NCBI GenBank assembly: GCA_964452935.1 | Contig: CAYVNO010000009.1 | Coordinates: 2,106 to 66,105 of the forward strand | Length of the DNA stretch: 64,000 nucleotides | Reading direction: 5' to 3' | Source of the DNA: an uncultured Methanosarcinales archaeon | GTDB taxonomy: Archaea; Nanobdellota; Nanobdellia; Woesearchaeales; DSVV01 | Shown: in pieces, positions 6,886-62,758 of the stretch | Layout: the number at the start of each line of letters is the position of its first letter | Position numbering within the stretch: the first letter of the stretch is position 1 | Made by a program: the position numbers and the translations under genes | The notes under the pieces: model-generated | Database searches by the model: none | The model's input: only the letters and a program-made list of their open reading frames with translations | Told to the model about the DNA's origin: nothing

Positions 6886-8061
6886 ATGGTGAAAAAAGTA
6901 ATCGAAGCCAGTATGGCAGTCGCAATTGGCGCAAAACTATGTGAACCTGATGTGATACCCATGTATCCCATCACACCTCAGAGAGGCTAAGCAATAGCTT
7001 ACCTCGTGGAAACACATATAGTAGAGCGACTTTCCGACTTCATAAACAACGGAGAACTAAACTGCAACATGATTCACTTAGAGAGTGAATTCGCTGCATT
7101 AAGCGCAGCTATTGGTGTGAGCGCAACTGGTTCTAGAGTTTTCACAGCAACCGCATCTCAAGGATTAGCATTAATGAACGAAGTTCTTCATGCTTCTGCT
7201 GGAATGAGATTCCCAATAGTAATGGCTGTCGCAAATCGTGCTCTATCCGCTCCAATTAACATCTGGAACGATCATCAAGACTCAATCTCTGCAAGAGACA
7301 CAGGTTGGATACAACTTTATGTAGAAAGTGCACAAGAAGCATTAGACACAACAATTATGGCATTCAAAATTGCAGAGAATAAAAAAGTTTTAACACCAGT
7401 AATGGTTTGTCTAGACGGATTCACACTAAGTCATGTTTATGAACCTGTTGATATACCTATCCAATCTCAAGTTAGAAAATTCCTTCCAAAATTTAAACCA
7501 GATATCTTCTTAGATCCAAAAAAACCAATAACAATGGGGCCTTTAGCATTCCCTGACGTATATATGGAAATAAAAAAAGAACAACAAGACGCAATCCTTA
7601 ACTCATTACCAATAATAAAAACAGTTAACTCACAATTCTATAAATCATTCAAAAGAAAGTATGGAGATGGATTAATAGAAACATACAAAACAAAAGATGC
7701 AAACACTATTTTAATAGCAATGGGAACTGTATGTAGTACTACTAGGACAGTTATAGATGAATTAAGAAAAGAAAAGAAAACTAATAAAGTAGGATTACTA
7801 AAAATAAAGTGTTTCAGACCATTTCCAGAAGAAGAAATAAAAAAAGCTCTAAAAAAAGCTAAAAAGATCGTAGTCATGGATAAAGATATGTCATATGGTT
7901 ATGAAGGAGCATTATACTCAGAAATTAAGTCCGCATTATACGGAGAAAAAAAGGAAATTAAAGGTTGTATTATTGGTTTAGGAGGGAGAGATGTAACTCC
8001 AAAACACATAAAACATGCATTAACAAATAAAGGAAAAGAGAAAACAGAGTGGTTGTTGTAA
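6886..8061 (+). CDS. porA: POR alpha subunit, interrupted by a 30-nt insert (predicted exons 6886-6981 and 7012-8061, 381 aa)
   Basis: ATG 6886 gives MVKKVIEASMAVAIGAKLCEPDVIPMYPITPQ, then an in-frame TAA at 6988-6990. The same frame resumes with THIVE...ESEFAA...TATASQGL...NRAL. Removing 30 nt restores YPITPQTHIVE. Confidence 0.9.
6982..7011 (+). other. Putative BHB-type micro-intron in porA mRNA
   Basis: AGAGGCTAAGCAATAGCTTACCTCGTGGAA. Exon CCTC pairs with intron GTGG (3 of 4 bp), bulges AG^A and AA^A, inner stem GAGG/CCTC plus TAAGC/GCTTA. Confidence 0.7.
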
Positions 8062-8074
8062 AGGTGACAAAAGC

Positions 8075-8410
8075 TTGACATTTGTTCATCATCTGCTGAA
8101 AGAGGATGACTTCAAAGAGAAGTGTGCATATTGTGGTAGTGAGCTCAATGAAGAAGAATGGAAAGAAATCCATGACTCAAGAATACAATACCACAATATA
8201 ACCTGTGAATGCGGAAAAAGAAATACAATAAGAATAGACTCAAAAGATGTTAACCACAACAAATGGGCACAAGATGAGTTTATGAAAAGAAAAACAACAG
8301 AAAAAGAGAGATTAGGAAGACTAATAAAACTAGAAAATTTAACAGGAGACGCACACAAACACATAGCAGAAAAGATTATAGAATCAAGATCAAAAGAACC
8401 AAAGGATTAA
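8075..8410 (+). CDS. Small Zn-ribbon-like hypothetical protein
   Basis: CAYCG...CECG; AGGTGA SD 7 nt before the TTG start. Confidence 0.6.
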   Translation: MTFVHHLLKEDDFKEKCAYCGSELNEEEWKEIHDSRIQYHNITCECGKRNTIRIDSKDVNHNKWAQDEFMKRKTTEKERLGRLIKLENLTGDAHKHIAEKIIESRSKEPKD

Positions 8411-8414
8411 TAAA

Positions 8415-9338
8415 ATGAAACCGGAAAAAGATACAATTTGTGGATTATCAAAAACAGAGCTATTCGCATCAGGACATAAAGCATGTGCTGGATGTGGTGC
8501 AGCATTAGTTCCAAGATTTGCTCTAAAAGCAGCAGGGAAGAACACAATAGTCTGCAACGCAACAGGATGTCTAGAAGTATTTTCAACAGCATATCCTGAA
8601 ACTTCATGGAGAGTTCCATGGATCCATGTAACATTTGAAAATGCAGCTTCCGTTGCATCAGGAATAGATAGAGCACTACAAATGCAAAAGAAAAGAGATA
8701 AAACAAACCTAATAGTCTTTGGTGGAGATGGAGGAACATTTGACATTGGACTACAATTCATCTCAGGAGCAATCGAAAGAGGACATAAATTCACATACAT
8801 CTGTTACGATAATGAAGCCTACATGAACACAGGAATACAACGTTCTGGTTCAACACCTAAATATGCGGCAACAACAACCTCTCCGGCAGGTAAAAAAATT
8901 CACGGAAAAACAGAATTCAAAAAACCAATGCCATTTATTGTAGCTGCTCACGGAAACGTCTATGTTGCAACAGCCAATATAGCATTCCCACAAGATTTTA
9001 TCGCAAAAGTAAAAAAAGCACTGAAATATGATGGCCCATCTTACATACAAATCTACGCACCGTGTCCAACAGGATGGAAACACCCATCTAATATGACAAT
9101 CGAGGTAGCAAAACTTGCATACTACACAAACCTCTACCCACTATATGAGATAGAAAAAGGAGTTCTAACATTAAACAGATTTCCATCAGACCCAAAACAA
9201 GTAGAAGAATTCTTTAAAATACAAGGCAGATTAAAACATCTATCTGAAAAAGAAACAAAAGACATGCAAAAGAAAGTAGACTCACAATTTAAAACAATAA
9301 AACATCTGAGTGATATGAAAACAAGATTTATTCTATAG
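8415..9338 (+). CDS. porB: POR beta subunit
   Basis: GHKACAGCG, ATGCLEV, GGDGG TPP motif, YDNEAYMNTG, PCPTGW. Confidence 0.95.
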   Translation: MKPEKDTICGLSKTELFASGHKACAGCGAALVPRFALKAAGKNTIVCNATGCLEVFSTAYPETSWRVPWIHVTFENAASVASGIDRALQMQKKRDKTNLIVFGGDGGTFDIGLQFISGAIERGHKFTYICYDNEAYMNTGIQRSGSTPKYAATTTSPAGKKIHGKTEFKKPMPFIVAAHGNVYVATANIAFPQDFIAKVKKALKYDGPSYIQIYAPCPTGWKHPSNMTIEVAKLAYYTNLYPLYEIEKGVLTLNRFPSDPKQVEEFFKIQGRLKHLSEKETKDMQKKVDSQFKTIKHLSDMKTRFIL

Positions 9339-10002
9339 TTGTCCCTTTAAACTCTTCTCCTTTCAAATATCTCTCTAAATTATTAATATTATCTCCATTC
9401 ATTATAACGACTCTCAACCCACACTCTTCTGCATTCTTTGCTGCAACAGGATCAAATGGCAAATTCAAACCAGGCTTCCACTCTCCACCAACAATCTCTT
9501 TAAATTCACTCCAAGATAACTTCACCATAGGTTTTGCATCATCAAACTGCTTAGGATCTTTATCAAAAACATAATCAACATTGGTTAAATTAATCACAGT
9601 ATCGGCTTTCAAATTCTCTGCTAAATAAACAGCATCATTATCTGAGCTACAACCAGGCATCCAACCAGAAGCTATTATTATTTTTTTATCTGTCTCGATC
9701 TTCTCTTTAGGATTATAAACAACATATTCATACGCTTCCTTACCAAAAACAGTCCTTATTAACTCAGCATTCAATTTTGTTGCAGCAATACCCACCCAGT
9801 CACAATCCTCTTTACTTGGCTCAGAAATCTCAATTGCAGCATTAATATATTCTCTTGCAATATGTCCACCACCACAAACAATAACAATCTTATTCTCTTT
9901 ACTAAAATCTAAAACCATCTTTTTAATTCTTTTAATATGTTCAATATCAATCTCTTTTGGATTAATTATTGATCCACCCAATGACACTATAATCGTTTTC
10001 AT
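9328..10002 (-). CDS. pyrH: Archaeal-type UMP kinase
   Basis: SLGGS, CGGGHIAREYI, DWVGIAATKLNA, TNVDYVFDKDP, PFDPVAA. Confidence 0.92.
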   Translation of the reverse strand: MKTIIVSLGGSIINPKEIDIEHIKRIKKMVLDFSKENKIVIVCGGGHIAREYINAAIEISEPSKEDCDWVGIAATKLNAELIRTVFGKEAYEYVVYNPKEKIETDKKIIIASGWMPGCSSDNDAVYLAENLKADTVINLTNVDYVFDKDPKQFDDAKPMVKLSWSEFKEIVGGEWKPGLNLPFDPVAAKNAEECGLRVVIMNGDNINNLERYLKGEEFKGTTIE

Positions 10003-10054
10003 TTTAATTCGCCCCCTGGTGAATTAAGAATTTGCTTTAGCAAATTAATCACCC
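10003..10054 (-). promoter_or_regulatory. Two-hairpin leader element (copy 1) before pyrH
   Basis: GTGATT-AATTTGC TAAA GCAAATT-C-TTAATTCACC AGGG GGCGAATTAA-AATG; homologous to 53493-53540. Confidence 0.6.
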
Positions 10055-10399
10055 ATTTATTCCTATAATTATTACACCTGCCCAAATAGCTATAAAACCA
10101 ATGCACTTATATAAATTCATCCTCTCCTTAAGATAATACACTGACAACAATAAAACCCAAACATAAGTCAAAGCTGTAAGGGGGTACAAAACACTCAACT
10201 CCCCACCCCTTAAACCAGCAATAAAAAACACAGTACCGAATACATATAAAAAAGCACCTAAGATAAGATAAAAGTTCTTTATTAATGAAATAATATCTAA
10301 TTTTAATTTATCCGCCCCTAATTTAAAACATAGTGCTCCACCAGCACCAACAAATGTACTGAAAGTAACTAAACCGAATGCCAATAAACTAGTTGACAA
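10049..10399 (-). CDS. Small 4-TM EamA/SMR (ArnE/F-like) transporter subunit
   Basis: Four hydrophobic helices and GELSVLYP motif; paralog of the adjacent gene. Confidence 0.75.
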   Translation of the reverse strand: MSTSLLAFGLVTFSTFVGAGGALCFKLGADKLKLDIISLIKNFYLILGAFLYVFGTVFFIAGLRGGELSVLYPLTALTYVWVLLLSVYYLKERMNLYKCIGFIAIWAGVIIIGING

Positions 10400-10760
10400 C
10401 TGGCTTCACCTCTTCACTTCCAAACCCAACAAAAGAAACACCCATAATAATTAATACAATACCTAACCACTTCAAAAAACCAACACCTTCTCCCAAAAAC
10501 CAATTAGAAAGCAAATTCACCCAAACAAAACTCAACGCAATAACAGGGTACAAAACACTCAACTCCCCAAACTTCAATGCAACAACAAACAAAACTGCAG
10601 CAATCCCATACAAACACAAACCTAAAAGAATTTGCCAGTTCAACATACTCAATAATGTATCTCCAAATTTACCAACCCCTAATTTATAGAATAATTGAGC
10701 ACTTGCCGTAAGAAATGTACAAAACGCTACTAGAAAAATTGCCCATAATTTAGTCTTCAT
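10389..10760 (-). CDS. Small 4-TM EamA/SMR (ArnE/F-like) transporter subunit
   Basis: AQLFYKLG, GELSVLYPVIALSFVWV, FLGE. Confidence 0.75.
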   Translation of the reverse strand: MKTKLWAIFLVAFCTFLTASAQLFYKLGVGKFGDTLLSMLNWQILLGLCLYGIAAVLFVVALKFGELSVLYPVIALSFVWVNLLSNWFLGEGVGFLKWLGIVLIIMGVSFVGFGSEEVKPVVN

Positions 10761-10770
10761 AATAACCTCT

Positions 10771-12546
10771 TTAATCTTTTAATAAGATCTCAACAACAGC
10801 TGCAAACGCTGGTCTTGTTATAAACACACCTATTGTAACACCCAGTATTGTTGTAATAGCAAAACCTTTTAACAAACCAGCTCCTGCCCATAACAACGGA
10901 ATCATTGCAACACATGTTGTAAAATAAGCAGCCATAATTATAAAAAAGGCTCTCTTTATCTTATCCTTCCAACTTAATACAGCAGTCCTACCCTTTCTCA
11001 ATACTTCATCTGCAATAACAATCTGGTGATCAACACCCGTACCCACCGCAATCAAAATACCTGCAATCGCTGCTAGATCTAGATTCCAACCAATCAATGC
11101 TGCTAATCCTAATAATAAAAAGATCTCACAACCCATCGTGAACATAACAGGCAATGAAACACTTAATTTTCTATATCTAATATAGACAACAACAGCAACA
11201 GAAACAATTGCTAACACTGCCACTAATAAAATATTCTTAATAAATTCTTGCCCCAATAAAGGAGAGATTGTATCAATTTTAACAATATCTAGTTTAACTG
11301 GTAAACTTCCTGTAATTAATAATGTCTGTAATTTTTTCATATTCAACGCACTATTTTGTATAGCCTCTTGATAAGTTCTGCCAACACCTGGTCCAGAAAT
11401 TGCAATATCTGTTGAAGGCTTTCCTTTCAAATCAGCACCTATTCTTAAAGTATCAACTAACTCGTCATCTAGATATAAATCCAAAGAAGAATTCAAATAC
11501 TGATAACCACCTTCATCTATAACTAACAAGTCTTCTGTTACACTTGCCTGTCTTTCAGCAGCCTCTGTACTTAGAGTAATACTAAAACTAAATGTACAAT
11601 AATGTTCATCACCTGAAGCAGTACAAGGCCTTCTTGGATCAGAAGCAAAACTACAATCAGCACTTCTACAAACAAACTTAATATCTTCTCCACCCATAAA
11701 TACAGATTCACTACCAATCTTTGCTTCAAATTTACCCTGACTTCCAATTAATGTCTTAACCTCTTCCTCATTTGCTCCTGCAATCTCAACCAGGATAAAC
11801 AAATCTCCAGCCAAATCCTTGGAAGTTCTAATAACAATATCACTCAATCCATAAACATTTAATCTTTGCTTTAAATTCTCAATAACAATTTCTAAATCAG
11901 CATCAGTTATCTCCTCTTCAGGTTGTAATAAAACTCTTGTTCCTCCTTCTAGATCTAACCCTTTCTTAATATTAGTTGAAGGAGCATCATAAACTTTAAT
12001 ACCAATATCTAAAACACCAATAATCTCTTCTTCTGTCTTATTCACAAAAACAGTCTTATTAACTGTCTCATTAACTAAAACAGTTGTACCATTAATTGTT
12101 TGATTTACCTCAACAACTTCAGGAACAATAACCTCTTCTGTCTCATTCAGAACAGTTACTAAAACTTCCGGTTGTACAGTTAGTGTATATACTTTAGGTT
12201 GTTTAAAGAATGAATAAGATCTTCCTGACTGTGTTTTTTCATAATTACTTAACGTTTCAATTCTAACAATAGTATTTGCTTCTAAATTAGATGTTAGCTC
12301 TGCATAATGTTCAGAACTCTCTACCTTAACCCCATTTATTTTAGTTATAATCTCCCTTAACATAGGTTTATCTCTTGCATGGGGACTATCCATTCCTGCA
12401 ATATAAGCGGCACTATCTTTTTCCACAGATCTAATTGCAACACCCTCTGGCGAGAAGTTTGGCCTGATCATAAGAACAGCTAAAACTAGTAAAACTAGTA
12501 AAAGAATAACCCTCCAGTTTTTTAACATCTGTTTTAGCTTACTCAT
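10771..12546 (-). CDS. secD: Protein translocase subunit SecD (archaeal type)
   Basis: GLDLEGGTR, RLNVYGLSD, GSLPV, GTGVDHQIVI, LKGFAITT. Confidence 0.92.
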   Translation of the reverse strand: MSKLKQMLKNWRVILLLVLLVLAVLMIRPNFSPEGVAIRSVEKDSAAYIAGMDSPHARDKPMLREIITKINGVKVESSEHYAELTSNLEANTIVRIETLSNYEKTQSGRSYSFFKQPKVYTLTVQPEVLVTVLNETEEVIVPEVVEVNQTINGTTVLVNETVNKTVFVNKTEEEIIGVLDIGIKVYDAPSTNIKKGLDLEGGTRVLLQPEEEITDADLEIVIENLKQRLNVYGLSDIVIRTSKDLAGDLFILVEIAGANEEEVKTLIGSQGKFEAKIGSESVFMGGEDIKFVCRSADCSFASDPRRPCTASGDEHYCTFSFSITLSTEAAERQASVTEDLLVIDEGGYQYLNSSLDLYLDDELVDTLRIGADLKGKPSTDIAISGPGVGRTYQEAIQNSALNMKKLQTLLITGSLPVKLDIVKIDTISPLLGQEFIKNILLVAVLAIVSVAVVVYIRYRKLSVSLPVMFTMGCEIFLLLGLAALIGWNLDLAAIAGILIAVGTGVDHQIVIADEVLRKGRTAVLSWKDKIKRAFFIIMAAYFTTCVAMIPLLWAGAGLLKGFAITTILGVTIGVFITRPAFAAVVEILLKD

Positions 12547-13565
12547 TTTTTCTTCCTCTCAAGATAAAATCTCAATAAACAAACATTCTGTATCCAAGTA
12601 TTCATCATGTCTGCCAATAAACCAATAAAAATAATTGTCATAATTTGTGATAAAACATCTGAATTAGAAAAGATCAAAGCAACAGTAATCGCAACTAGAG
12701 TAGTCATACTCATAACTATACCAGTCTTCATCGCACCATAAACCCTATCTAAAACACTTCCTTGTTCTCCTTTCAATACTCTTATTGTCAACAACATATT
12801 TGTATCAACACTATAACCTATTAGCATTAAAAATGCCGCAATACCTGCAGTAGATAGTTTCATACCAAAAATATTAACAACAGCTAAAGTAATAACAATA
12901 TCAGAAAAGGCAGCTAAAATAACTGCAAAACTTGGAACAGGTGACCTAAAGTATAAGAACACAATTATCCCCATAAATAAGAACGCTAATAATAACGCCT
13001 TAATAGTTTGTTTGAAAAAACTAGTCCCTAAACTAGACCCCATTACCTCTATACTATAATCATTCCTATCTCCACCAATTTTTTCATGGATTAAAGTTAT
13101 AAAACTATCAATAATATCTTGGTCAGTCATATCTGCCTCAATTATAACACCACTCATTGCACCAGTCGCTGTAGTCAACTTTCTAACATTAATATCATAC
13201 TCACTCATCTCATTAGATAAATAAGAAGATAACTCACCAATATCCACACTATCAACATGAGGAATAGTAAGAGTTACTCCACCTTTTAAACTAACACCTT
13301 TGTTTAGAAAATCTCCAGTTGTTGCATACTGGAAACCAATCTGACCTAACGCTAATAAGAGTATAATAAAAGGTATAATCATTAAAACCTTATACTTATT
13401 CACAAATATATTCTCAATAGATCTAAGAAAACCCTTGCTTCTCAACGGCTCACTAGCAGAAACCTTCTCTTCCTTAAATTCAGGCTTCTCAGGCTCTGTA
13501 TCCTGTATCTCATCTCCCTCAGCCTTTGATTTATGCCTTAGTCTACGCTCTCTTCGTTTACTCAT
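12543..13565 (-). CDS. secF: Protein translocase subunit SecF (likely start 13565; ORF track starts at 13616)
   Basis: GVSLKGG, SSLG, IGYSVDTNMLL, DMMNTW. Confidence 0.92.
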   Translation of the reverse strand: MSKRRERRLRHKSKAEGDEIQDTEPEKPEFKEEKVSASEPLRSKGFLRSIENIFVNKYKVLMIIPFIILLLALGQIGFQYATTGDFLNKGVSLKGGVTLTIPHVDSVDIGELSSYLSNEMSEYDINVRKLTTATGAMSGVIIEADMTDQDIIDSFITLIHEKIGGDRNDYSIEVMGSSLGTSFFKQTIKALLLAFLFMGIIVFLYFRSPVPSFAVILAAFSDIVITLAVVNIFGMKLSTAGIAAFLMLIGYSVDTNMLLTIRVLKGEQGSVLDRVYGAMKTGIVMSMTTLVAITVALIFSNSDVLSQIMTIIFIGLLADMMNTWIQNVCLLRFYLERKKK

Positions 13566-13619
13566 ACACTCACAGAAATCGGCTTTATTTTTAAAGCTTT
13601 TGGAATATTTAACCATGAA

Positions 13620-16484: not shown

Positions 16485-16485
16485 C

Positions 16486-46943: not shown

Positions 46944-48340
46944 AACTTCCTCACTCTCCCACTCTTCAAATCAACCTCTACTTTATCTCCATCTTTCAAC
47001 ATATCAGTTGCATACTTTGTTCCAATCACACACGGAACTCCTAGCTCCCTAGAAACAACTGCAGCATGACACGTAACTCCTCCTTCATTTGTTATTATTA
47101 ACTTAGCTTTCTTCATCAAAGAAATCATATCAGGCCTTGTCATAGAAGAAACCAGAACATCCCCTTCCTTAAACTTATCAGCATCATCCATAGTCATAAC
47201 AACAGAAACATTACCATTAACAACATCTTCATCACATCTACAAGCAACCAACCCATTCAACTCTTTAACATCAACCTTTGGCATGACTAAATCAAATAAC
47301 TCTTTGGCTTTCTCACCAGTCTCTAAATGTAATTTTCTATCATCTTTCATATAAACAAAACACAACTCTCTACGATCATGTAAAACCTTCTTATCCACCT
47401 CACCATTCAACACACCTTCAATCTCAGGAAACATAGTATATTGTAATTCCTCCAGAGTATAAGAAGTTCTTCTAACAACCTCATTCAATAATAAATACTG
47501 ATAATGCAAAGCTTCTAAACAAAACTCTTTCCTCTGATCCTGCAAATGTATAAAGAAATCAATATATTTCACTAATAACCTTAATTCATCATTATCAATC
47601 TCATCCAATATTCTCTCTTTCTCTTTCTTCAACTCAATAAGTCCTTCCTCAATCTTTGAAATCTTTTCTTCAGCATTATCAATCTTCTTAACCGCTCCTG
47701 TAACATAATTCTCATCTAAATAAATAACTCTCGTATAATTATTCTCAACCCAATGGAATCTCTTAACATGTTCTTTAACTAAATCGTCATTAAACCTTAA
47801 AGCAATCCTCAACAAAGATAATTCACACTCATTACTAAAAGATAATTTAGTAGGAGAACTCAGTGTAATATATCCGTCCCGACCATCCAACAACTTCTTT
47901 AAGTGCTCCTCTGCAAAAAAACCAAAACTATTTGTAACCAGCGGAAAAGCGTAAGCAATTGCATACGCATTATCAAACCTCTCAAACAATTTCAAGAAAT
48001 CTTCATCACTTAACGACTTCAAATCAGTTGAACAGATTTCTTCCTCAACTTTCCTCAACTCCTCAACCTGCCCACACCATTTTTCATAATAAGGAATTAA
48101 AAACTTCTTATCCATCAACAAACTCTCAAATATTTTCCTACCTATTTCTTTACAATCATTCATCTCCCAGATCCAATTCCCAACATTCCCTCTAAAGATA
48201 TTCGCAGTAATCTTAAATGAAAAAGGAAACTCATCCTGAAGCAAAGTCATCCCAGCACAAAACGGAGAGAAAAAGGTGTGTAAATTACCAGATAACTCTT
48301 CAATATACCATTCGGGGTTTGAAAAACCTAAAACATTCAT
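46940..48340 (-). CDS. Variable domain + phospho-His swivel domain protein (paralog 8)
   Basis: RFHWVENNY, LQDQRK; NEGGVTCHAAVVSRE. Confidence 0.85.
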   Translation of the reverse strand: MNVLGFSNPEWYIEELSGNLHTFFSPFCAGMTLLQDEFPFSFKITANIFRGNVGNWIWEMNDCKEIGRKIFESLLMDKKFLIPYYEKWCGQVEELRKVEEEICSTDLKSLSDEDFLKLFERFDNAYAIAYAFPLVTNSFGFFAEEHLKKLLDGRDGYITLSSPTKLSFSNECELSLLRIALRFNDDLVKEHVKRFHWVENNYTRVIYLDENYVTGAVKKIDNAEEKISKIEEGLIELKKEKERILDEIDNDELRLLVKYIDFFIHLQDQRKEFCLEALHYQYLLLNEVVRRTSYTLEELQYTMFPEIEGVLNGEVDKKVLHDRRELCFVYMKDDRKLHLETGEKAKELFDLVMPKVDVKELNGLVACRCDEDVVNGNVSVVMTMDDADKFKEGDVLVSSMTRPDMISLMKKAKLIITNEGGVTCHAAVVSRELGVPCVIGTKYATDMLKDGDKVEVDLKSGRVRKL

Positions 48341-53540: not shown

Positions 53541-53574
53541 ATTTATAAAAGAATACATACATCATATATAAATA

Positions 53575-54948
53575 TTACTCAATCTTTCTCACTCTCCCTT
53601 TATTAGCATCTACCTCAACTTCATCTTCACTCTTAAAAACCTTTGCAGCATCCCTAACACCAACAATACAAGGAATACCTAATTCTCGAGAGACAATTGC
53701 TGCATGACATGTTAATCCGCCTTCTTCTGTAACAATCGCAGCCGCTCTCTCCATCGCAGGCAAAAAATCTGGGTGCGTAGTAATCGCTATCATTATATCT
53801 CCATACAAAACATCATTCAAATCTCCAACGCCTCTAACGATCTTTACTTTACCTTTAGCCATTCCTTTAGATGCACCTAATCCTCTTAATTCATTAACAT
53901 CTTTAACATTCAACTCAAAATTAAACATCTCTTTTGCTACTTTCTCAATATCATCAACAATACAAACAGTCTTTCCATTATCGGCAAACATCATAAAACC
54001 ATTCATTCTTTTATTCACTAAATCTAAATCTACATTTTTTCCATTCAAAGATTCTATTATCTCATCCTCAGTTAAATAAGCCAATTCTTCAATTCTAACT
54101 CCAACTCTTTTAGCCATCTCTAAAAACAAAGGTCTAATAAAGAATATAGTCCTTCTTCTGTAATAATCCCTCATATCTTTCATATAAGCTAAATATCTCA
54201 TCCTATCAAAAACAAATTTGTCTTCGTCATTCAAATTCAACTCTTTAATCGCTTCTTCATAACTCATTCCAATCTCTTCATCAGTATTAATATGACCAAT
54301 AAACCCTAACAAATCCTTCTCATCCCAAGGTTTATTATGCAAATCCAAACAAGGCATCCACTCACATTCCTTCAACAATTTCCTAACTTCATCCCTATTG
54401 TTCTTATCAATCTTAACAGCTCTCTTTCTCAAAGCACTTACAAAATTCTCTTTCTCAGGACTAAACAAAACATTCAAATAAACCCCTCTTTTCTCATTAT
54501 TAACCCCGACAAGTTTCTCAAACAATAAGTTAGCAACCTCTCCAAAAGAATCATTTGCTTTATGAAAATGCCAAACACCAACAGTAAAATCAATCATTCT
54601 CTTTTGATAACCTAAATAATATTTTATCAACTCGGTCTTAGAAAAACCAGAAGGATCTTTCTCAAAAACATCTTTTGAATAATTTAGATAATCATCAGCA
54701 ACCTGAAAAAAGATATTAGTTAACTCTTCATACAACTTCTTATCAAAAACAACTTTAACTAACGCATTGCATACATTCTTAATCTCTTTCTCATCACAAT
54801 AACATACAATATTCTTATTGTCAGGAAAAAGAAAGATATCTAATCCGCCAGGAATAACTCCATCTAACCCTTCTTTCAAAAAACATTTCCAAATATTCTC
54901 ACAATACTGAACACTATACTCTCTTGAAAACTCTCTCTGCCAACTCAT
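53575..54948 (-). CDS. Variable domain + phospho-His swivel domain protein (paralog 12)
   Basis: MKDMRD; EEGGLTCHAAIVSRE. Confidence 0.85.
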   Translation of the reverse strand: MSWQREFSREYSVQYCENIWKCFLKEGLDGVIPGGLDIFLFPDNKNIVCYCDEKEIKNVCNALVKVVFDKKLYEELTNIFFQVADDYLNYSKDVFEKDPSGFSKTELIKYYLGYQKRMIDFTVGVWHFHKANDSFGEVANLLFEKLVGVNNEKRGVYLNVLFSPEKENFVSALRKRAVKIDKNNRDEVRKLLKECEWMPCLDLHNKPWDEKDLLGFIGHINTDEEIGMSYEEAIKELNLNDEDKFVFDRMRYLAYMKDMRDYYRRRTIFFIRPLFLEMAKRVGVRIEELAYLTEDEIIESLNGKNVDLDLVNKRMNGFMMFADNGKTVCIVDDIEKVAKEMFNFELNVKDVNELRGLGASKGMAKGKVKIVRGVGDLNDVLYGDIMIAITTHPDFLPAMERAAAIVTEEGGLTCHAAIVSRELGIPCIVGVRDAAKVFKSEDEVEVDANKGRVRKIE

Positions 54949-56435
54949 ACCTTCCTCACCTTTCCATTGGAAGCATCAACCTCTACCAAATCACCATCTT
55001 TCAAAACCTTTGTAGCTATTTTCGTACCAATTACACAAGGAATACCTAACTCTCTTGAAATAACTGCAGCATGTGCTGTAATCCCTCCTTGTTCTGTAAC
55101 AATCGCTGCCGCTTTATTCATTATCGGAACAAAATCAGGTGTTGTCTGATTTGTAACTAATATTTCTCCTTTCTTAAATCCGCATCCTTTCGGATCTCTA
55201 ACAACTCTCACTACACCTTCAACTAAACCAGAACAAGCTGTAACACCTTCTATAACATCTACATCCCCCAACTCTTCAATAAAATCAGATTCATCTAAAT
55301 ATTTATCATAATCTTTCCCTTCATAAACTGCATACCCTTTAGGAGTGCCATAAACAAAATTCTTTTTTGACCTTAATTTCAACTTCTTCAAATCAAAAGT
55401 CTTTTTAAGAAAAATATATTTTATCTCTGGCTCAACTGTATGATATAACAACTCAAAGTTAATTCCCATTCTTTTAGCCATCTCTTTTATTATCAAATCA
55501 AAGAAATGAGCAAACCTAACAATCCCCATCTTTCTATAATCTTGTATATGTGTCATAAGAGACGACATTTTTATAACTCTATTTAGATAATCATCACCAA
55601 TCGTTTTCAATAACTTCTCTCTCTTTTCATTATTCTCCACAAAAACATGGATATAATCTTCAAATGATCCATTAAACAACTTTTTAGCAAAATCTTTCAC
55701 AGAAAGGACTTTTGGGAAATAACTGTTTTCTACCCAGTAATACCTTTCTTTATGTGAACATAATCTTTCCCAATTCTTCTTATCCTTTTTCAAAGATTCA
55801 TAAAACTCATTAAAATTATCTTTCTTCTTCACATCATCTGAAATCTTAGATAAAGAGATCATCTCTTCATTTGAATAAGAAGGAATCGTCGGAGCAGTTA
55901 ATATTGTTATAATCTCATAAATCTTTTTTTTATCTTTAACATCTAATCTAGAAATAATAAAATCAGACAACCAATCAGATTCTCCAGAAGATAAAAAACA
56001 GTCTGCTAGATAACCAGATCCTGCTTGCCGTAGATTTGCATGATAAATCTTCTTATAAACTTCAAACAACTCTTTATCACTTAACTCACTATAATCCATT
56101 CCTTCAACTTCTTCATACACTGAAAGATTATAATCATGATCTTTCTCCCACCGATTATACAAGATCATAAAGAATCTAAGATCTTTTTTACATTTCTCAA
56201 GAAACAAATTCCTAACTCTTGTAAGCTCTCTGTTGTCCCAAAACCAATCAAACATTAACCCTTTCTGAATAGAATATCCAGATTTAAATCCAAAAGGATA
56301 AAGTTTATTCATAGTATAAACTCCACCATGGATCCCCTGCATAAAAATCAAATGTAACGGACCAGGATATGCTTTCTCTAACCATTCCTTCTTTGGATTA
56401 TTAGTCTTTACCTTTCCTTTTGGTAATCGTTTCAT
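54945..56435 (-). CDS. Variable domain + phospho-His swivel domain protein (paralog 13; likely start 56435)
   Basis: RYYWVENSY, IQDYRK; EQGGITAHAAVISRE; TTTATATA box about 25 nt upstream of MKRLP. Confidence 0.85.
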   Translation of the reverse strand: MKRLPKGKVKTNNPKKEWLEKAYPGPLHLIFMQGIHGGVYTMNKLYPFGFKSGYSIQKGLMFDWFWDNRELTRVRNLFLEKCKKDLRFFMILYNRWEKDHDYNLSVYEEVEGMDYSELSDKELFEVYKKIYHANLRQAGSGYLADCFLSSGESDWLSDFIISRLDVKDKKKIYEIITILTAPTIPSYSNEEMISLSKISDDVKKKDNFNEFYESLKKDKKNWERLCSHKERYYWVENSYFPKVLSVKDFAKKLFNGSFEDYIHVFVENNEKREKLLKTIGDDYLNRVIKMSSLMTHIQDYRKMGIVRFAHFFDLIIKEMAKRMGINFELLYHTVEPEIKYIFLKKTFDLKKLKLRSKKNFVYGTPKGYAVYEGKDYDKYLDESDFIEELGDVDVIEGVTACSGLVEGVVRVVRDPKGCGFKKGEILVTNQTTPDFVPIMNKAAAIVTEQGGITAHAAVISRELGIPCVIGTKIATKVLKDGDLVEVDASNGKVRKV

Positions 56436-56488
56436 ATAAATAACAATACTAAATTCATATATAAACTTTATCAAGAATAAGTATAGAG

Positions 56489-56623
56489 GAATTGCTATTT
56501 GTGTCCTCAGGTCGAAATTCAATAAAATAGCTGGAGATAGTTCGTTGTGAGGGGTTGCTCCCTACGGGAACACAGAACTTTAGAAAATATCATACAGAAT
56601 TTCGAAGACACTTTTAGCAATTC
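56489..56623. ncRNA. Candidate 135-nt rod-shaped structured RNA or palindromic element
   Basis: Nested stems GAATTGCTA/TAGCAATTC, GTGTC/GACAC, TCGAAATTC/GAATTTCGA, AGTTC/GAACT, TGTG/CACA, TCCC/GGGA. Confidence 0.45.
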
Positions 56624-56648
56624 TACTAAACAATAAGAAAATCAAAGC

Positions 56649-56682
56649 GTTGCTGCAGTATCGGCTAAGGCACTGCAGCAAC
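56649..56682 (-). terminator. GC-rich hairpin followed by a U-rich tract, downstream of 56697-58211
   Basis: GTTGCTGCAGT/ACTGCAGCAAC 11-bp perfect stem; TTTGATTTTCTT follows on the minus strand. Confidence 0.55.
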
Positions 56683-56696
56683 ACTTATGAACATGA

Positions 56697-58211
56697 TTAA
56701 ACAGCAATCTTAAATCCCATCTGAGTAGGCAATCTTAATGTTTCATCTCTATGACCCTTGTACCAAGACCTTTCAAAAGCTCTATTTGCTAAATCTCTAT
56801 TATTAAAATAAAACCTATTAGCAGCAGATCTATTTTCAGGAGAAGTATTTCCCCTAAGCATACTTGCATACATTGAATTAATTGTATTATCAGTTCCTGC
56901 TGTCCTAAAGTGAGTTCCATACTTTACATAAATATTATTTCCTCCTCTTGTGTCAACACCTTCCGTAGGTTTTAACATACTTGAAGTTCCCATAATATTG
57001 TAAGTCCTATGACCATCTCTTATCGGTTGATTTAATGCAATTCCATTCTGTCTTCCAACTTTTTTTGATCCAACATCTAAATCAATCTGATCAGCACCTA
57101 ATCCTTTGAATATATAATATAATGGACCACTAATACTTTTTCCAGGATTTGGTGTACCTTCTGAAATAATTTTATTTCCAGCATACATTCTAACTCTTCT
57201 ATCATATAAAGCTGCATTCCTAACATTATTTGCACCAGTACTATGACCAAATAAACCAACAGGAACACCAGTCTTAAAATAACCTAACTCAACTAAGTCT
57301 CCAACTTGTTTGGAAACTATATGTGGATCGTCTTTATTAGAATTATGATCTAAAACAACAGCCCTAACATTTTGTTTCAATAACTCATTTTGTAAAGCAA
57401 ACAATGAACCAATTTCTAACCCTAAACCTTTCAATAAAACAGCCATATAATCTCCTTTCTTTAAATTCTTCATTATCTCACTATTTCTTGCTCTAACAAT
57501 AGGCGTACCTACAAAGTTCTCCATAGCTAATTTAATTTGATAAGGAATATTCATAAGAACATCGTCAATAGCTTGTAACCATCCTCTTTTTCCAATACCA
57601 TCTTTTGCAACCTGTGCTTTAGCTCTTGCTCTTAATTCATTATATGGTCTTAAAGTAATATCAGTATCAGCCTCAACTAACAAACCACTAAAATAAACTT
57701 TTGTTCCATCTTTTAATTTAATAACTTCCTTTGCCTCTTTTTTGCCATCATTAATAACTCCTTCAAGAGTCCTATGTTTATTGGCTTTTTTATTCGCCCA
57801 ATGTTCCCCAGCAATTTCTTCTAATCTAGATAACATCTCCTTTCTATCAGCTCTTTCTTGTGCTCTTCTCTCCCCTTCTAATCTTGCTCTCTTAGATTTA
57901 TACTTAACATTTCCATTCTCTTTCAATCTTGCTGCCTTTCTATCGGCATAAGCTTGTTTTCTATGTTTAATGGCCTCTTTATAATCCCTTAAGTTCGGAT
58001 CCTGAATAGTTTTACCATTCGCATCCTTAACACCTAAATGACCATTCTGATCTGGTTTATTATCATATTGTTTACCCTTAGAATTCCTTCCACCATTATG
58101 TACCTTGGCCTTACTCCATCTTTTTTTAGCCTTATCTTTAGCACTAGCCTTTGCATTCTTAGTACTATTAGAACTCTTACTCGATTTTCTCGCAGTTTTT
58201 GCCTTAGCCAT
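56697..58211 (-). CDS. Lys/Arg-rich N-terminus fused to a divergent alpha/beta-hydrolase-like domain
   Basis: VLLKGL, GLFGHSTGA, GTPNPG, GTHF. Confidence 0.6.
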   Translation of the reverse strand: MAKAKTARKSSKSSNSTKNAKASAKDKAKKRWSKAKVHNGGRNSKGKQYDNKPDQNGHLGVKDANGKTIQDPNLRDYKEAIKHRKQAYADRKAARLKENGNVKYKSKRARLEGERRAQERADRKEMLSRLEEIAGEHWANKKANKHRTLEGVINDGKKEAKEVIKLKDGTKVYFSGLLVEADTDITLRPYNELRARAKAQVAKDGIGKRGWLQAIDDVLMNIPYQIKLAMENFVGTPIVRARNSEIMKNLKKGDYMAVLLKGLGLEIGSLFALQNELLKQNVRAVVLDHNSNKDDPHIVSKQVGDLVELGYFKTGVPVGLFGHSTGANNVRNAALYDRRVRMYAGNKIISEGTPNPGKSISGPLYYIFKGLGADQIDLDVGSKKVGRQNGIALNQPIRDGHRTYNIMGTSSMLKPTEGVDTRGGNNIYVKYGTHFRTAGTDNTINSMYASMLRGNTSPENRSAANRFYFNNRDLANRAFERSWYKGHRDETLRLPTQMGFKIAV

Positions 58212-58346
58212 ATAATATCTATCACATAGCTCCTATATAAATGTTTCGTTTTGTAACTACATAACAGTAATAACATATATATCCTTTCTATATAGAAAAT
58301 AATTCAACAGCAACATTAATATATAACATCTCAACTACATACATAA

Positions 58347-59837
58347 ATGACAATATCAATAGAAGAGATGGCAACTTTCTGTAAAGCCAAAGGCTTTGTC
58401 TATCAAGATAGTGAGATCTACGGCTCTTTATCAGGATTCTGGGACTTTGGTCCTTTAGGTGTTGAACTAAAAAATAACATAAAACAACACTGGTGGAAAA
58501 CATTTGTTCAAAACAGACAAGATGTTGTTGGTATGGATGGTTCTATCATAACCCACAGAAAAATATGGGAAGCATCTGGACATGCAGACTGCTTTGCAGA
58601 TCTAATCCTAACATGTGCAAAATGTAAAAACAAATTAAGAGCAGATATTCACATAGAAGAAGTTCTAAACATTCCAGGAGATGGACTTACAGCAGAGCAG
58701 GTAAATGATATTGTAGAAAAAAACAACTTAAAGTGTCAAAAATGTAACGGAGCATTCTTAAAAGTAAACGATTTCAACCTAATGTTTGAAACACAAGTTG
58801 GCCCATCAAAAGAAAAAACAAATACAACATTCTTAAGACCAGAAACAGCACAACTAATTTTTGCAGACTTTCATCTAATAAAAGAAAACGCAAGACTAAA
58901 ACTACCATTTGGAATTGCACAAATCGGAAAATCATTTAGAAACGAGATCTCACCAAGAGATTTCTTATTCAGAACAAGAGAATTTGAACAAATGGAAATA
59001 GAATTCTTTGTGCATCCTGATAGAATTAATGAATGTCCATTCTTTAATGAAGTAAAGGATATGAAGATTAACATTATCACATCGGCAATGCAACAAAAGA
59101 AACAAAAACATAAAGAGATTACAGTCGACAAACTAACAGAATTCACAAGTAAGTGGCATGCATACTGGTTATCAATTAATTATAAATGGTTTTTAGACTT
59201 AGGAATAAAACCAGAAAATATCAGGATAAGAGAACACCTAGAAAAAGAACTTGCTCATTATGCAGGAGCATGCTTTGATTTAGAATATAACTTCCCTTTT
59301 GGTTGGAAAGAAATTCATGGAAACGCAGACAGAACACAATTCGATATAAAACAACATGTTAAAGCCAGCGGCAAGGACATTAATGTATATGATGAAGAAA
59401 CAAAAGAAAAAATAATCCCTTATGTTGCTTCAGAACCTTCGCAAGGTGTTGAAAGAGCATTTCTCTCATTCATGTTTGACGCATACAATCATGACCCAGA
59501 AAATAAAGAAAGAAATTGGGTTGTTTTAAAACTACATCCAAAATTAACTCCAATAAAAGTTGCAGTCTTTCCATTAGTTAACAAACTAAATGATAAAGCA
59601 AAAGAAATATTCAACTTATTAAAAACAGAATTTGTCTGCACATATGATCGAGGAGGGGCAATCGGAAGAAGATATGCAAGAGCAGATGAAAGAGGGATCC
59701 CTTGTTGTGTAACAATAGACTTTGACACAATTGAAAAGGACAACTCTGTAACAATCAGAGACAGAGACACAACCGAACAAGTTAGAGTAAAAATCCCTGA
59801 ACTAAAAAAATTTCTTAGAGAAGCCCTAGAAAAGTAA
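58347..59837 (+). CDS. glyS: Glycine-tRNA ligase (alpha2 type)
   Basis: SEIYG, DFGPLG, FNLMF, LRPETAQ, FRNEISPR, REFEQME, ELAHYA, IGRRYARADE. Confidence 0.97.
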   Translation: MTISIEEMATFCKAKGFVYQDSEIYGSLSGFWDFGPLGVELKNNIKQHWWKTFVQNRQDVVGMDGSIITHRKIWEASGHADCFADLILTCAKCKNKLRADIHIEEVLNIPGDGLTAEQVNDIVEKNNLKCQKCNGAFLKVNDFNLMFETQVGPSKEKTNTTFLRPETAQLIFADFHLIKENARLKLPFGIAQIGKSFRNEISPRDFLFRTREFEQMEIEFFVHPDRINECPFFNEVKDMKINIITSAMQQKKQKHKEITVDKLTEFTSKWHAYWLSINYKWFLDLGIKPENIRIREHLEKELAHYAGACFDLEYNFPFGWKEIHGNADRTQFDIKQHVKASGKDINVYDEETKEKIIPYVASEPSQGVERAFLSFMFDAYNHDPENKERNWVVLKLHPKLTPIKVAVFPLVNKLNDKAKEIFNLLKTEFVCTYDRGGAIGRRYARADERGIPCCVTIDFDTIEKDNSVTIRDRDTTEQVRVKIPELKKFLREALEK

Positions 59838-60044
59838 TCACTTAAATCTCAGAAACAAATAAGATGCTAATAGAGCTGGCAATACATAATACTTAACATG
59901 GTGTGGAATGAAGAATATACCTACTGCTAACAAAACAAACACAGTATTTACAATATATATGTATTCTTTATCTTTTGTTAAAGATGCCTCTAGAACCCTC
60001 TTTCTATCATACTCTAATAAAGCACCAGACATCACATGTGTCAT
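59838..60044 (-). CDS. Small 2-TM membrane protein (likely start 60044)
   Basis: MTHVMSG... with a GGAGGGTG SD; two hydrophobic segments. Confidence 0.5.
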   Translation of the reverse strand: MTHVMSGALLEYDRKRVLEASLTKDKEYIYIVNTVFVLLAVGIFFIPHHVKYYVLPALLASYLFLRFK

Positions 60045-60191
60045 TTTACACCCTCCGTAGATTCTATAGGCATACATATATATAAATCTTTCGCTTTTGT
60101 TATGCAGAATTGTATAACAAAACACACAGATCAATAAATTTATATATTCCTCAACCCAAAATCACAATATCAACTTAAAAAGAGGGATAAT

Positions 60192-61103
60192 ATGATAATA
60201 AACAAACATACAACACCAATATTCTTAATAGTAGCAATTGTTGCTATTGTAGCTTTAATTTCAAACGCTAACTTTTCAGGAGACCTTGCTGGACAAGCAT
60301 ATGAAAAGATACCATGCACAGATTCAGATGGCAATGACCCATCAATTGCAGGAAAATATCACGGAAGTTTTGGAACCAAGGGAACAATCTCTGGAACAGA
60401 ACATTGTAGAAAAGACGGAGAACCAACAGACACTTGTATTGGCGAAGGCTGCGGAATGGCAGAATTCTATTGTGAAGATGAATTTAAACTAAGAAAACAA
60501 GTATACGAAGGAGGAACATGTGATCAAGGAGTTTTTACAAAAGAAGAAGTTGTTGAGGAGCCTGTAGAAGAAGAGATTGAAGAAGAACCAATCGAAGAAG
60601 AGGAAGTTATAGAAGAACCTATTGAAGAAGAAGTTGAAGAGGAGCTTTGTACTGAAACTGATGATGGTCAAGATTATTATAATTATGGAAAAAATGAAGG
60701 TTATATGGCTGGTACATGGACTGACACTTATGATGACATGTGTAGGGGTTCACCTTATTATGACTTAGTTGAATACTATTGTGATGGAAAAGATATTATA
60801 GCTATAACTGTAGATGTTCCTGAAGGTTACATGTGTCAGGATGGTGCTTTTATTCTTAAAGAAGAACATGAATACACATGTACTGACAGCGACGGTGGAC
60901 AAGATTATTATACATTAGGCATTACTAGTGGTTATATTGGTGATACGTGGTATGAAGATACTTATGATGATATGTGTAGGGGAGAGCCATATAATGATCT
61001 AGTTGAATACTATTGTGATGAAGATATCGATGAGATCAAAGGCGTACCTGTTGATCCTCCTGAAGGATATAAATGTGAAGACGGCATCTTTGTTCTAGAA
61101 TAA
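60192..61103 (+). CDS. Exported Cys-rich repeat surface protein with acidic linker
   Basis: N-terminal signal/TM; three CT(D/E)(S/T)DxGxD...G...C...L.EYYC...C.DG.F-type modules; EEPIEEE linker. Confidence 0.75.
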   Translation: MIINKHTTPIFLIVAIVAIVALISNANFSGDLAGQAYEKIPCTDSDGNDPSIAGKYHGSFGTKGTISGTEHCRKDGEPTDTCIGEGCGMAEFYCEDEFKLRKQVYEGGTCDQGVFTKEEVVEEPVEEEIEEEPIEEEEVIEEPIEEEVEEELCTETDDGQDYYNYGKNEGYMAGTWTDTYDDMCRGSPYYDLVEYYCDGKDIIAITVDVPEGYMCQDGAFILKEEHEYTCTDSDGGQDYYTLGITSGYIGDTWYEDTYDDMCRGEPYNDLVEYYCDEDIDEIKGVPVDPPEGYKCEDGIFVLE

Positions 61104-61147
61104 ATTTTTTTATTCTTTCCTATTTCTAAAAAAAAGAAAATAAAAAA

Positions 61148-61978
61148 TTAAAGTCCAAACAATGCAACTAACTGAGGATAACCAAAGACCTCAATCCCTG
61201 CTGCGATTACAATAACAACAAAACCAATCCCTAAAATAATCCAAGCATCTGTCATAACATGGTGGAACTTCTTAGAAAACAAATCTTCTCTTAACAAAGC
61301 CTTTGACATAACTCCACCAGTAATTGCTGCAGTAAAATAACTAAACGCTTCTGTTATCATGTGAGGTAAAAAGGGTAATAACCCAACTGCAAAAGCCAAA
61401 AGAGGATTCTTTGCACCTGCAACTGCAGACATCTTTGCATAATAAGCAAATATAACTCCCCAAACAGTTGCATTCCAAGTAATAAATAGAATTGAACCTG
61501 CACCATACACAAGAGATAAAACCAAACAAACAAACAAAACAATTATATTATTAATCAAGATTGACATAAATGTTGCTCCACCTGTTGCCTGTCCTGCGAT
61601 ACCTATTAAGTTCAGTTGGGGTGCAAACATGTGCATCAAAGAGTTCATAGGCAATATTAAAGATACCACACCAAACGTCAAAAACACACCTAAAAACATG
61701 AATATATAGATCTCAAATATATCTTTATGATCATTAAACAATTGTTTAATATGAAACTTCTTCTCCCTTATCTCAACATTCTCTTCATGCTGCAATAACT
61801 GATTCAAAGAGGGAATTAACAATATCGAAGTAAATGCAACAGTCATAAGACCAGGATTACTACCAAATATCAATCTAGCAGAAAATATACCAACAATAGA
61901 GTATATTACACCTAAAATAAAAGCATGCCTTGGCTTTTTTTCAATCCATTTCTCTTTAAAAACCTGTTCCAATACCAT
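61148..61978 (-). CDS. SpoIIM (DUF95)-like membrane protein (likely start 61978)
   Basis: ILINN, WNA, LPH...EA..Y, AAGIE motifs; multiple TM helices. Confidence 0.75.
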   Translation of the reverse strand: MVLEQVFKEKWIEKKPRHAFILGVIYSIVGIFSARLIFGSNPGLMTVAFTSILLIPSLNQLLQHEENVEIREKKFHIKQLFNDHKDIFEIYIFMFLGVFLTFGVVSLILPMNSLMHMFAPQLNLIGIAGQATGGATFMSILINNIIVLFVCLVLSLVYGAGSILFITWNATVWGVIFAYYAKMSAVAGAKNPLLAFAVGLLPFLPHMITEAFSYFTAAITGGVMSKALLREDLFSKKFHHVMTDAWIILGIGFVVIVIAAGIEVFGYPQLVALFGL

Positions 61979-61998
61979 GAATAACACCTCTTTTATAT

Positions 61999-62075
61999 AG
62001 CAAAGTGCACAATTAATATAATATTGCACTTTGCTTATTATGAGAAGGCATCAATATATATATAATATGCCTTCT
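61999..62075. repeat. Two adjacent inverted repeats, each with a 15-nt AT-rich spacer
   Basis: AGCAAAGTGCA-caattaatataatat-TGCACTTTGCT and AGAAGGCAT-caatatatatataat-ATGCCTTCT. Confidence 0.7.
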
Positions 62076-62161
62076 AATATAAATCTCTATTCAAAAGGAT
62101 ATATAAAACTTTCCACAATATTTATAAATAATCCTTGAATTCAGACTCTAGGTGAATATAT

Positions 62162-62671
62162 ATGGCAATATCGGAATTACAACCAAGGCAAGGAAAAGTC
62201 AATGTAGTAGCTGAAATAGTTGAAAAAGGCGAACCAAGGGCTATTGAAAAAGAGAACTTCTCAGGTAAAGTCTGCGATGCAAAAATCAAAGACTCATCTG
62301 GAGAAATAAAGCTAACATTATGGAACGAACAAGTTGATAAATTCAACGTAGGAGACATAATAAAAGTAGAAAATGGTTATGTTAACGAATGGCAAGGAGA
62401 ACTACAGTTATCCTCAGGAAAATTCGGAAATATTGAATTAGTTGAAAAATCAACAAAAGAACCAACTGCAGAACAATCAGAAACAACAGATGAAAAAACA
62501 GAAGAACAACTGATTGAAAAAGAAGGAGAAAAGACTGATTCAGGAGAACACATTTTAACAGAAGATGAAAAAACAGAATCAGAATTACTCAGCGAAGAAA
62601 AAGAAAAAGATGACCATGGAGAAAAGATTCTAACTCCAGACGAACAAGTAGAAGAAGAAATAATTGAGTAA
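62162..62671 (+). CDS. Single OB-fold ssDNA-binding protein (SSB/RPA-like) with acidic tail
   Basis: IKDSSGEIKLTLWNEQ, VENGYVNEWQGELQLSSGKFG. Confidence 0.85.
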   Translation: MAISELQPRQGKVNVVAEIVEKGEPRAIEKENFSGKVCDAKIKDSSGEIKLTLWNEQVDKFNVGDIIKVENGYVNEWQGELQLSSGKFGNIELVEKSTKEPTAEQSETTDEKTEEQLIEKEGEKTDSGEHILTEDEKTESELLSEEKEKDDHGEKILTPDEQVEEEIIE

Positions 62672-62727
62672 ACATAAATCATTTAAATCATAGTCAAGAC
62701 AGACAATACAGACTGAGCTCAATGGGG

Positions 62728-62758
62728 ATTTCATAAGCAAAAGCTTACGAGACCATAA
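62728..62758 (+). other. tRNA intron 1 (31 nt), acceptor stem position 4/5
   Basis: Helix ATGG/CCAT (4/4), bulges GG^A and AA^A, inner stem TTTC.TAAGC/GCTTA.GAGA. Confidence 0.8.

Follow-up and report, generated by a model that had tools for sequence, protein, structure and literature searches.

Putative bulge-helix-bulge introns in the porA and tRNA-Phe genes of a Woesearchaeales archaeon and the 15-nt core that they share

Background

The window considered here, a 64,000-nt stretch of contig CAYVNO010000009.1 from an uncultured marine archaeon of the order Woesearchaeales (assembly GCA_964452935.1), holds two genes that are interrupted by short inserts of nearly the same size. One is porA, for the alpha subunit of pyruvate:ferredoxin oxidoreductase, which is broken by an insert of 30 nt. 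The other is a gene for tRNA-Phe(GAA), which has three inserts, the first of them 31 nt long and situated in the acceptor stem. A sequence-only reading of the window noted that these two inserts contain almost the same 15-mer and proposed that one small type of intron had spread between tRNA and protein genes and had re-tailored its guide helix at each site. The locus therefore raises the question of whether the 15-nt core marks a mobile family of micro-introns.

The observations behind this proposal are largely accurate. The 15-mers are TAAGCAATAGCTTAC at 6988-7002 and TAAGCAAAAGCTTAC at 62734-62748, both on the + strand, and they agree at 14 of 15 positions, the single difference being one base of the loop. 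The insert sizes are also as described (Table 1), and both inserts start with A and terminate in AA, with A as the next base. The claim that the flanking intron bases complement the local exon holds in full for the tRNA, where CCAT (62753-62756) pairs throughout with ATGG (62722-62725), and in part for porA, where GTGG (7006-7009) and CCTC (6976-6979) form three of four pairs, with a U-U mismatch. Both inserts can be assigned to one mechanistic type (helix, 3-nt bulge, helix), with one example in a tRNA and one in a protein gene, and to that extent the idea of a single type stands. The idea that this type has spread and refitted its helix was not borne out: no third intron-like copy was found in this genome or in up to 401 genomes of the order, the two introns are identical at 17 of 31 positions, and their basal bases differ at 12 of 12.

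The reading that we favour, and consider probable, is that both inserts are archaeal bulge-helix-bulge (BHB) introns, that the 15-nt core is a coincidence and that the porA intron belongs to porA. The intron reading itself is strongly supported by comparison among related genomes, and cleavage and ligation are predicted from it. The genome that contains the window (G000) is 1.66 Mb long, with 33% G+C, in 49 contigs and about 90% complete; the window is positions 2106-66105 of its contig C9.

The porA insert in this genome and its relatives

Apart from the insert, the frame of porA is open, and the protein is 78% identical to its nearest orthologue and matches the Pfam families POR_N (E=2.6e-66) and PFOR_II (E=4.8e-32). 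Read through the TAA of the insert, the gene has 10 extra codons (RG*AIAYLVE), which are exactly those missing from intact homologues between YPITPQ and THIVE (alignment A1), and the junction of the intact homologues aligns to the spliced porA without a gap. The best PorA homologues carry the source names Candidatus Woesearchaeota or Nanobdellota. Among the 120 best homologues listed, five start directly after or near the intron site. Four of these begin M-D/E-THIVE, which is what a gene caller would give by choosing a GTG inside such an intron; the fifth (P0096) starts a few residues downstream of the THIVE point.

When 401 genomes of the order were searched at the protein level, 159 gave a match at E <= 1e-60. 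From the group of close orthologues (at least 53% identity) 46 loci were taken, of which 43 were scored; G102, G121, G223 and G145 were left unscored because the site pattern was not matched, and three unpublished genomes were left out. An insert is present at the identical codon boundary in 12 of the 43 scored orthologues, that is, in this genome and 11 others. The insert is 30 nt long in this genome and in G034, G165, G335 and G323, 27 nt in G095, 28 in G276, 29 in G152 and G572, 31 in G416 and G197, and 32 in G051. Six of the 12 lengths shift the frame, and the other six, all in frame, carry TAA as their third codon. All 12 inserts end in GTGGA[A/T/G] followed by A, while the exon before the insert reads CCAC and then A[G/A] in 11 of the 12, with CCTC in this genome. 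Unconstrained folds give the CCAC/GTGG helix, the 3-nt bulge and the hairpin in 10 of the 11 folded and in G572, the exception being the window's own copy.

In an alignment of 11 porA copies with tRNA intron 1 (A2), pairing is seen in 85.3% of cells, compared with 66.8% for shuffles and 31-50% for slid controls. Both-side changes occur at 13 of 13 pairs, a figure reached in none of 500 shuffles, and across copies the hairpin helix itself has them at nine of nine. This suggests that the structure of the porA introns has been kept by compensatory changes. The Pro codon that supplies the exon strand is CCA in 11 of the 12 genes with the intron and in 6 of the 31 without it, counts on which kinship inflates any test; the exon strand at this codon appears to be constrained. 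In relatives the apex of the hairpin takes forms such as TAAGT-AAAT-ACTTA and TAAG-TCAAT-CTTA, and the TAAG...CTTA apex was inherited within the porA intron lineage.

Where close relatives are without the intron its absence is exact, and in each of the genera g153, g178 and g259 the intron is present in some genomes and exactly absent from others. When intron presence is mapped on a tree of 42 exon-2 proteins, 11 of whose rows bear the intron, 10 state changes are needed, at least six of them forced by well-supported branches, and the intron label is no more clustered than shuffled labels (mean 10). The porA tree cannot separate gain from loss. In a phylum-wide sample of 401 genomes the orthologue group was found almost only in the same order, and its four members from other orders were free of internal stops. 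A single site in at least 12 genomes, with diverging sequence, a kept structure and patchy presence, suggests an intron that belongs to porA.

In the porA intron the hairpin closes the 5' bulge, and no helix was found 3' of the second bulge, so that the strict hBHBh' form is not reached; the motif as modelled would be a relaxed BHB form.

A tRNA-Phe gene with three putative introns

ARAGORN finds no tRNA in the raw window, and the Rfam tRNA model matches 62759-62901 weakly (29.5 bits), leaving 82 bases of the anticodon arm unshown. When the three inserts listed in Table 1 are removed, the 74-nt product is recognised by ARAGORN as tRNA-Phe(gaa). To pair with the 3' acceptor strand, CGTCCCC, the 5' side must read GGGGACG, which is interrupted here and is unbroken in the tRNA-Phe of the sister genome, G004. 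The cut rule, after the second base of each of the 3-nt bulges that flank a 4-bp helix, was fixed by the canonical 37/38 intron and applied to the other introns. All three tRNA introns have complete 4-bp helices and 3-nt bulges, and intron 3 has the strict hBHBh' form. The central helix of intron 1 uses two bases of the leader, and its cutting is therefore expected before RNase P trims the 5' end.

This is the single tRNA-Phe gene found in the genome. The 3' half of the tRNA, with up to three mismatches, was found in none of 40 relatives, and the G004 orthologue (locus L101, contig C4 of that genome) was located through its D-arm. It has the same acceptor stem and the same leader, CAAT, and is without the 4/5 and 30/31 introns. 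It carries a canonical 37/38 intron and, in the T-loop, an intron of 33 nt. Judging from these two genes, tRNA intron positions probably turn over quickly between genera. In the genome as a whole ARAGORN and Rfam find only about 15-21 tRNA genes, many of them with non-canonical micro-introns, and much of the tRNA complement is either masked by introns or missing from the assembly.

Table 1. Positions, within the 64,000-nt window, of the interrupted genes, their putative introns and the surrounding por genes
Feature	Position	Strand	Details
porA (pyruvate:ferredoxin oxidoreductase alpha subunit), interrupted	6886-8061	+	exon 1 6886-6981; exon 2 7012-8061 including stop
Putative porA intron, 30 nt	6982-7011	+	in-frame TAA 6988-6990; excision would restore the conserved YPITPQ/THIVE
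Exon strand of central 4-bp helix	6976-6979	+	CCTC here, CCAC in 11 relatives; 5' bulge AGA 6980-6982, predicted cut after second base
porA intron hairpin	6983-7005	+	helix GAGG/CCTC, 6983-6986 with 7002-7005; bulged C6987; stem TAAGC/GCTTA; loop AATA; contains the 15-mer; minimum-free-energy fold
Intron strand of central helix	7006-7012	+	GTGG 7006-7009, present in 12/12 porA introns; 3' bulge AAA 7010-7012, predicted cut after second base
tRNA-Phe(GAA), three putative introns	62724-62906	+	exons 62724-62727, 62759-62785, 62807-62813, 62871-62906
Putative tRNA intron 1, 31 nt, acceptor stem between positions 4 and 5	62728-62758	+	helix ATGG (two leader bases plus G1 G2)/CCAT; bulges GGA, AAA; contains the 15-mer
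Putative tRNA intron 2, 21 nt, between positions 30 and 31	62786-62806	+	helix CGCT/AGCG; bulges AGT, AAA; fold gives 4-bp helix, 3-nt bulge, hairpin
Putative tRNA intron 3, 57 nt, canonical 37/38	62814-62870	+	helix CTGA/TCAG; bulges AGA, AGA; closed by anticodon stem
por cluster	5748-9338	+	porG 5748-6299, porD 6296-6583, cutA1 6580-6882, porA, 111-aa open reading frame (ORF), porB 8415-9338; from the ORF list and Pfam (POR, Fer4, CutA1, TPP_enzyme_C)

Two features of the por cluster may be recorded beside the intron: cutA1 sits within the cluster, and the ORF of 111 amino acids between porA and porB (8075-8410, + strand) has two Cys pairs and matches no Pfam family.

Splicing enzymes and putative introns in rtcB

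The geometry of the two genes suggests a common route of processing. The four exon bases just 5' of the 5' splice site would pair with the four-base stretch of the intron that lies just before its final two bases, giving a 4-bp helix with a 3-nt bulge on either side; EndA would cut after the second base of each bulge and RtcB would join the exons. In this way tRNA-Phe would lose its three introns, and the porA mRNA would lose 30 nt and regain the YPITPQ/THIVE motif of the thiamine-diphosphate domain. In unspliced porA RNA the in-frame TAA, or a frameshift in relatives, would stop ribosomes.

One EndA gene was found, for a single alpha4-like protein. It encodes 177 amino acids, is complete, has both the N-terminal and the catalytic Pfam domains and is colinear with the homotetrameric enzyme of M. 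jannaschii (1a79, E=1e-36). One article describes the alpha4 type of EndA as strict (PMC5829648). RtcB is also present. Its gene is split by a frameshifting insert of 32 nt (contig C7, 212-243; locus L068), between HQGY and GFSIGG, for which no clean canonical BHB could be drawn.

Across the order RtcB was found in 150 of 151 genomes, seven of them with internal stops or an N-terminal split, and six of these seven loci were taken for inspection. In G102 (30 nt) and G083 (32 nt) canonical BHB introns lie within the Tyr codon of the HQGY motif of rtcB. G093 and G134 have an rtcB intron of 33 nt each after the His codon, with a 3-bp helix that covaries (GTC/GAC versus GCC/GGC), and G134 has a second rtcB intron of 12 nt. 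Removal of each of these introns restores MPDAHEGYGFPIGG-type motifs. The rtcB of G161 has an unexplained in-frame stop, and G164 is a poor assembly. With rtcB introns in four relatives, BHB introns in protein genes are not unique to porA. A separate group of rtcB frames (G091, G122, G035, G108, G111, G127, G139, G039, G145, G078 and G159) is 936-1013 amino acids long and matches the Pfam profile only from profile positions 43-49 onwards; these probably contain inteins.

The shared core and the search for further copies

The core occupies intron bases 7-21 in both introns. Within it one base of 15 differs, in the basal helices all 12 bases differ, and over the whole intron the identity is 55% (17/31). 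Among pairs of BHB-like hairpins from a scan of the genome, a 14/15 match occurs at a rate of 4-7e-5 per pair. When the porA hairpin was compared with 512 BHB-like candidates, one scored 14 (tRNA intron 1), and the next best, again a single one, scored 12.

In the window, the 15-mer with at most two mismatches has four matches against 0.48 expected, and four were reached in none of 100 shuffles. A palindrome at 47951-47966 (TATGCAATTGCTTAC / TAAGCAATTGCATAC) supplies two of the four, being read on both strands; it has two mismatches to the 15-mer on each strand and folds without BHB context. In the whole 1.66-Mb genome the only exact copies of the 15-mers are the two in porA and tRNA-Phe, and 11 near-matches that were folded gave no BHB hairpin.

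The searches for further copies found none that is intron-like. A covariance model (R1) was built from 12 copies, 11 from porA together with tRNA intron 1, which match it by construction, and it scored only 150 or 44 first-look candidates per genome. In this genome it found only its two training copies and two weak matches that are not introns (C3:27594-27630 and C39:3770-3814): neither folds as a BHB, and the C39 site is within an open frame. Across 151 genomes of the order the model found only porA sites and one weak match, at G121:C1:681985, where the frame is open across the site and the hairpin is weak, and in the five closest relatives it found nothing. Of 401 genomes, 94 hold the 15-mer with at most one mismatch, at about 120 places in all; a reversed-pattern control gave roughly half as many, and in none of 49 inspected loci did the 15-mer show intron geometry in a conserved gene. 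Two of the places, L137 (G147:C124) and L138 (G147:C188), share TAAGCAYAAGCTTACTCTTCNGATAGTC, a repeated element that contains a one-mismatch 15-mer. When the porA hairpins of G034, G165 and G335 were searched for in their own genomes the matches were at control level, and a conserved match in that search, TAAGTACGCACTTAA, is coding sequence.

Scans of the genome for BHB micro-introns that would fuse open frames gave no usable enrichment under strict settings (16 passes versus 10.2 in random-position controls) and were uninformative under relaxed ones (22,139 passes versus 22,748). According to a recent preprint, families of transposed introns are called at 70-80% whole-intron identity (bioRxiv 10.64898/2026.10.13.758758); the present pair has 55% and only two copies. 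The shared core is not the signature of a dispersed mobile element, and the case for a mobile family is weak.

Another recurrent element of this genome is a palindrome, ATAATGCCGA-(5-7 nt)-TCGRCATTAT, present at nine intergenic places (C3:59708 and 71454; C12:29431 and 35758; C14:9109; C26:12545 and 15465; C32:1605; C33:10364), usually with a TATA-like sequence ahead of it and TAAGACATT behind it. The palindrome is not an intron and has the look of an operator or a promoter-linked site.

Alternative explanations

The likeness of the two cores is most likely a two-copy resemblance between apical hairpins in one genome, a coincidence between short A/T-rich hairpins. Several facts weigh against this: the chance of such a 14/15 partner is about 0.005-0.03 genome-wide (for roughly 100-500 candidates), the core stands at the same offset in the two introns, TAA has a reason in a coding intron and none in a tRNA intron, and the sister genome is without both introns. 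All of this would fit an event in which, once this lineage had separated from that of G004, tRNA-Phe received a copy of the porA intron, or of its apical hairpin, between positions 4 and 5 and the basal helices subsequently became adapted to the new exon, a transposition across RNA classes. Both introns have, besides the core, the A start and the AA^A end. G004 is the sister in the porA tree (support 99), and its tRNA-Phe has an unbroken GGGGACG behind the same leader. The direction would be from porA to tRNA, as the TAAG...CTTA apex appears ancestral in porA and its TAA is an in-frame stop there; and for Thermoproteales, movement of BHB introns from one tRNA gene to another has been deduced (PMC4090602, citing Fujishima 2010). 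We nevertheless judge such copying unlikely. Basal helices that differ throughout beside a core that differs at one base are not predicted by neutral divergence after a whole intron was copied, and a fresh copy with GTGG, unable to pair with ATGG, would disable the only tRNA-Phe gene found. Beyond the two copies, searches of up to 401 genomes of the order gave no other intron-like one (49 of the approximately 120 15-mer places inspected), and the whole-intron identity lies below that used for families.

Other facts weigh against the splicing of porA in this genome. Its central helix has the U-U mismatch, the fold is without that helix, and this copy may be spliced poorly. There is no outer helix at the 3' bulge, the only EndA found is alpha4-like, a type described as strict, the 32-nt insert in the genome's own rtcB leaves the supply of ligase itself unproven, and the runs listed for 5700-9400 of the window are of DNA only, so that splicing of porA is something that we infer. 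The imperfect central helix would also suit an insert that stays in the RNA, with porA a pseudogene or with ribosomes reading through the insert or hopping over it. This is very improbable in view of a gene that is otherwise intact, with an exon 1 (32 codons) differing from that of the sister genome at one position, and of an insert whose site is the same in the 12 genomes that carry it, whose pairs show compensatory changes and whose adjoining exon codon is constrained. Since half of the insert lengths shift the frame, readthrough is ruled out. In the bypass of phage T4 gene 60, matching take-off and landing codons stand around a stop-containing gap; here CAG precedes the insert and ACA follows it, and matching codons are absent. 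That the insert is an artefact of assembly or sequencing is hardly credible at all. Short contigs of two runs, X1 and X2, do break within the intron hairpin (ends at 7017/6990 and 7011/6992), for which low depth or branching of the assembly graph may be the cause. The region is represented in eight DNA runs from two studies, and the 1171-nt contigs of X3 and X5, which come from two studies, span the insert and cover 6737-7500 with no changes and no gaps; the insert also recurs at the same site in eleven other genomes. An intron that is removed from the porA RNA remains the explanation best supported by these comparisons.

Comparison with known systems

The BHB intron in the pre-mRNA of cbf5, the gene for a pseudouridine synthase, was reportedly described by Watanabe (2002), and archaeal pre-mRNA splicing is reportedly linked to hetero-oligomeric endonucleases (Yoshinari 2006). 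In the genome studied here, by contrast, one gene for EndA was found, and it is alpha4-like. The cbf5 intron of Crenarchaeota, as described by Yokobori (2009; PMC2738675), resembles that of porA in being a tRNA-type intron in a protein gene, defined by the structure of its junctions and gained or lost among relatives. The present introns differ from it in their hosts, porA and, in relatives, rtcB, in their occurrence in another phylum, in a Woesearchaeota-like DPANN lineage, and in their size of only 12-33 nt. A search for the cbf5 gene itself (Pfam TruB_N) found nothing in this genome, which is about 90% complete. According to a 2020 paper, cbf5 was the only archaeal mRNA with a reported BHB intron before the case of the HVO_1309 5' untranslated region of Haloferax volcanii (PMC7714728). 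The latter is, like porA, an mRNA substrate of the archaeal splicing endonuclease. It differs in that its element lies in an untranslated leader, whereas the porA intron breaks the reading frame within a conserved motif of a catalytic domain. Our literature search found no report of BHB introns in porA, rtcB or DPANN protein genes in main texts, although supplementary tables might list some.

Transposition of tRNA introns in Thermoproteales is reportedly the subject of Fujishima (2010). These tRNAs, as PMC4090602 and bioRxiv 10.64898/2026.10.13.758758 present them, have several introns each and at non-canonical positions, as here, and related introns at different sites are taken as transposition on the basis of 70-80% or more whole-intron identity and many members. 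In the present case there are two copies with 55% identity overall, the likeness lies within 15 nt and one partner is a protein gene.

A further parallel is found in eukaryotes. XBP1/HAC1 mRNA is spliced by proteins alone, at small stem-loops cut by the nuclease IRE1 and joined by a ligase of the tRNA pathway, and removal of the intron restores or changes the frame as part of a regulated stress response. XBP1 and RtcB are both named in PMC8718801. The two systems differ in the nuclease, which here would be the tRNA endonuclease, and regulation is a feature of XBP1/HAC1.

Implications

On a broader view, tRNA-type micro-introns would have colonised protein genes (porA and rtcB) in this DPANN order, maturation of mRNA by EndA and RtcB would be routine there, and one intron or hairpin copied between a protein and a tRNA gene would be the first trace of BHB mobility across RNA classes; we hold this view as a whole to be rather doubtful. 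The patchy presence of the porA intron within g153, g259 and g178 provides material for studying gain and loss, processes that a 2026 preprint on Asgard tRNA introns calls still open for such introns (bioRxiv 10.64898/2026.10.13.758758). Should splicing of the porA and rtcB introns take place, the tRNA machinery would splice mRNA more widely in Archaea than has been assumed, and an alpha4-like endonuclease would be acting on relaxed motifs. Gene callers would then systematically shorten or split such genes. In the case of rtcB, an mRNA that needs RtcB to mature would constitute a feedback loop.

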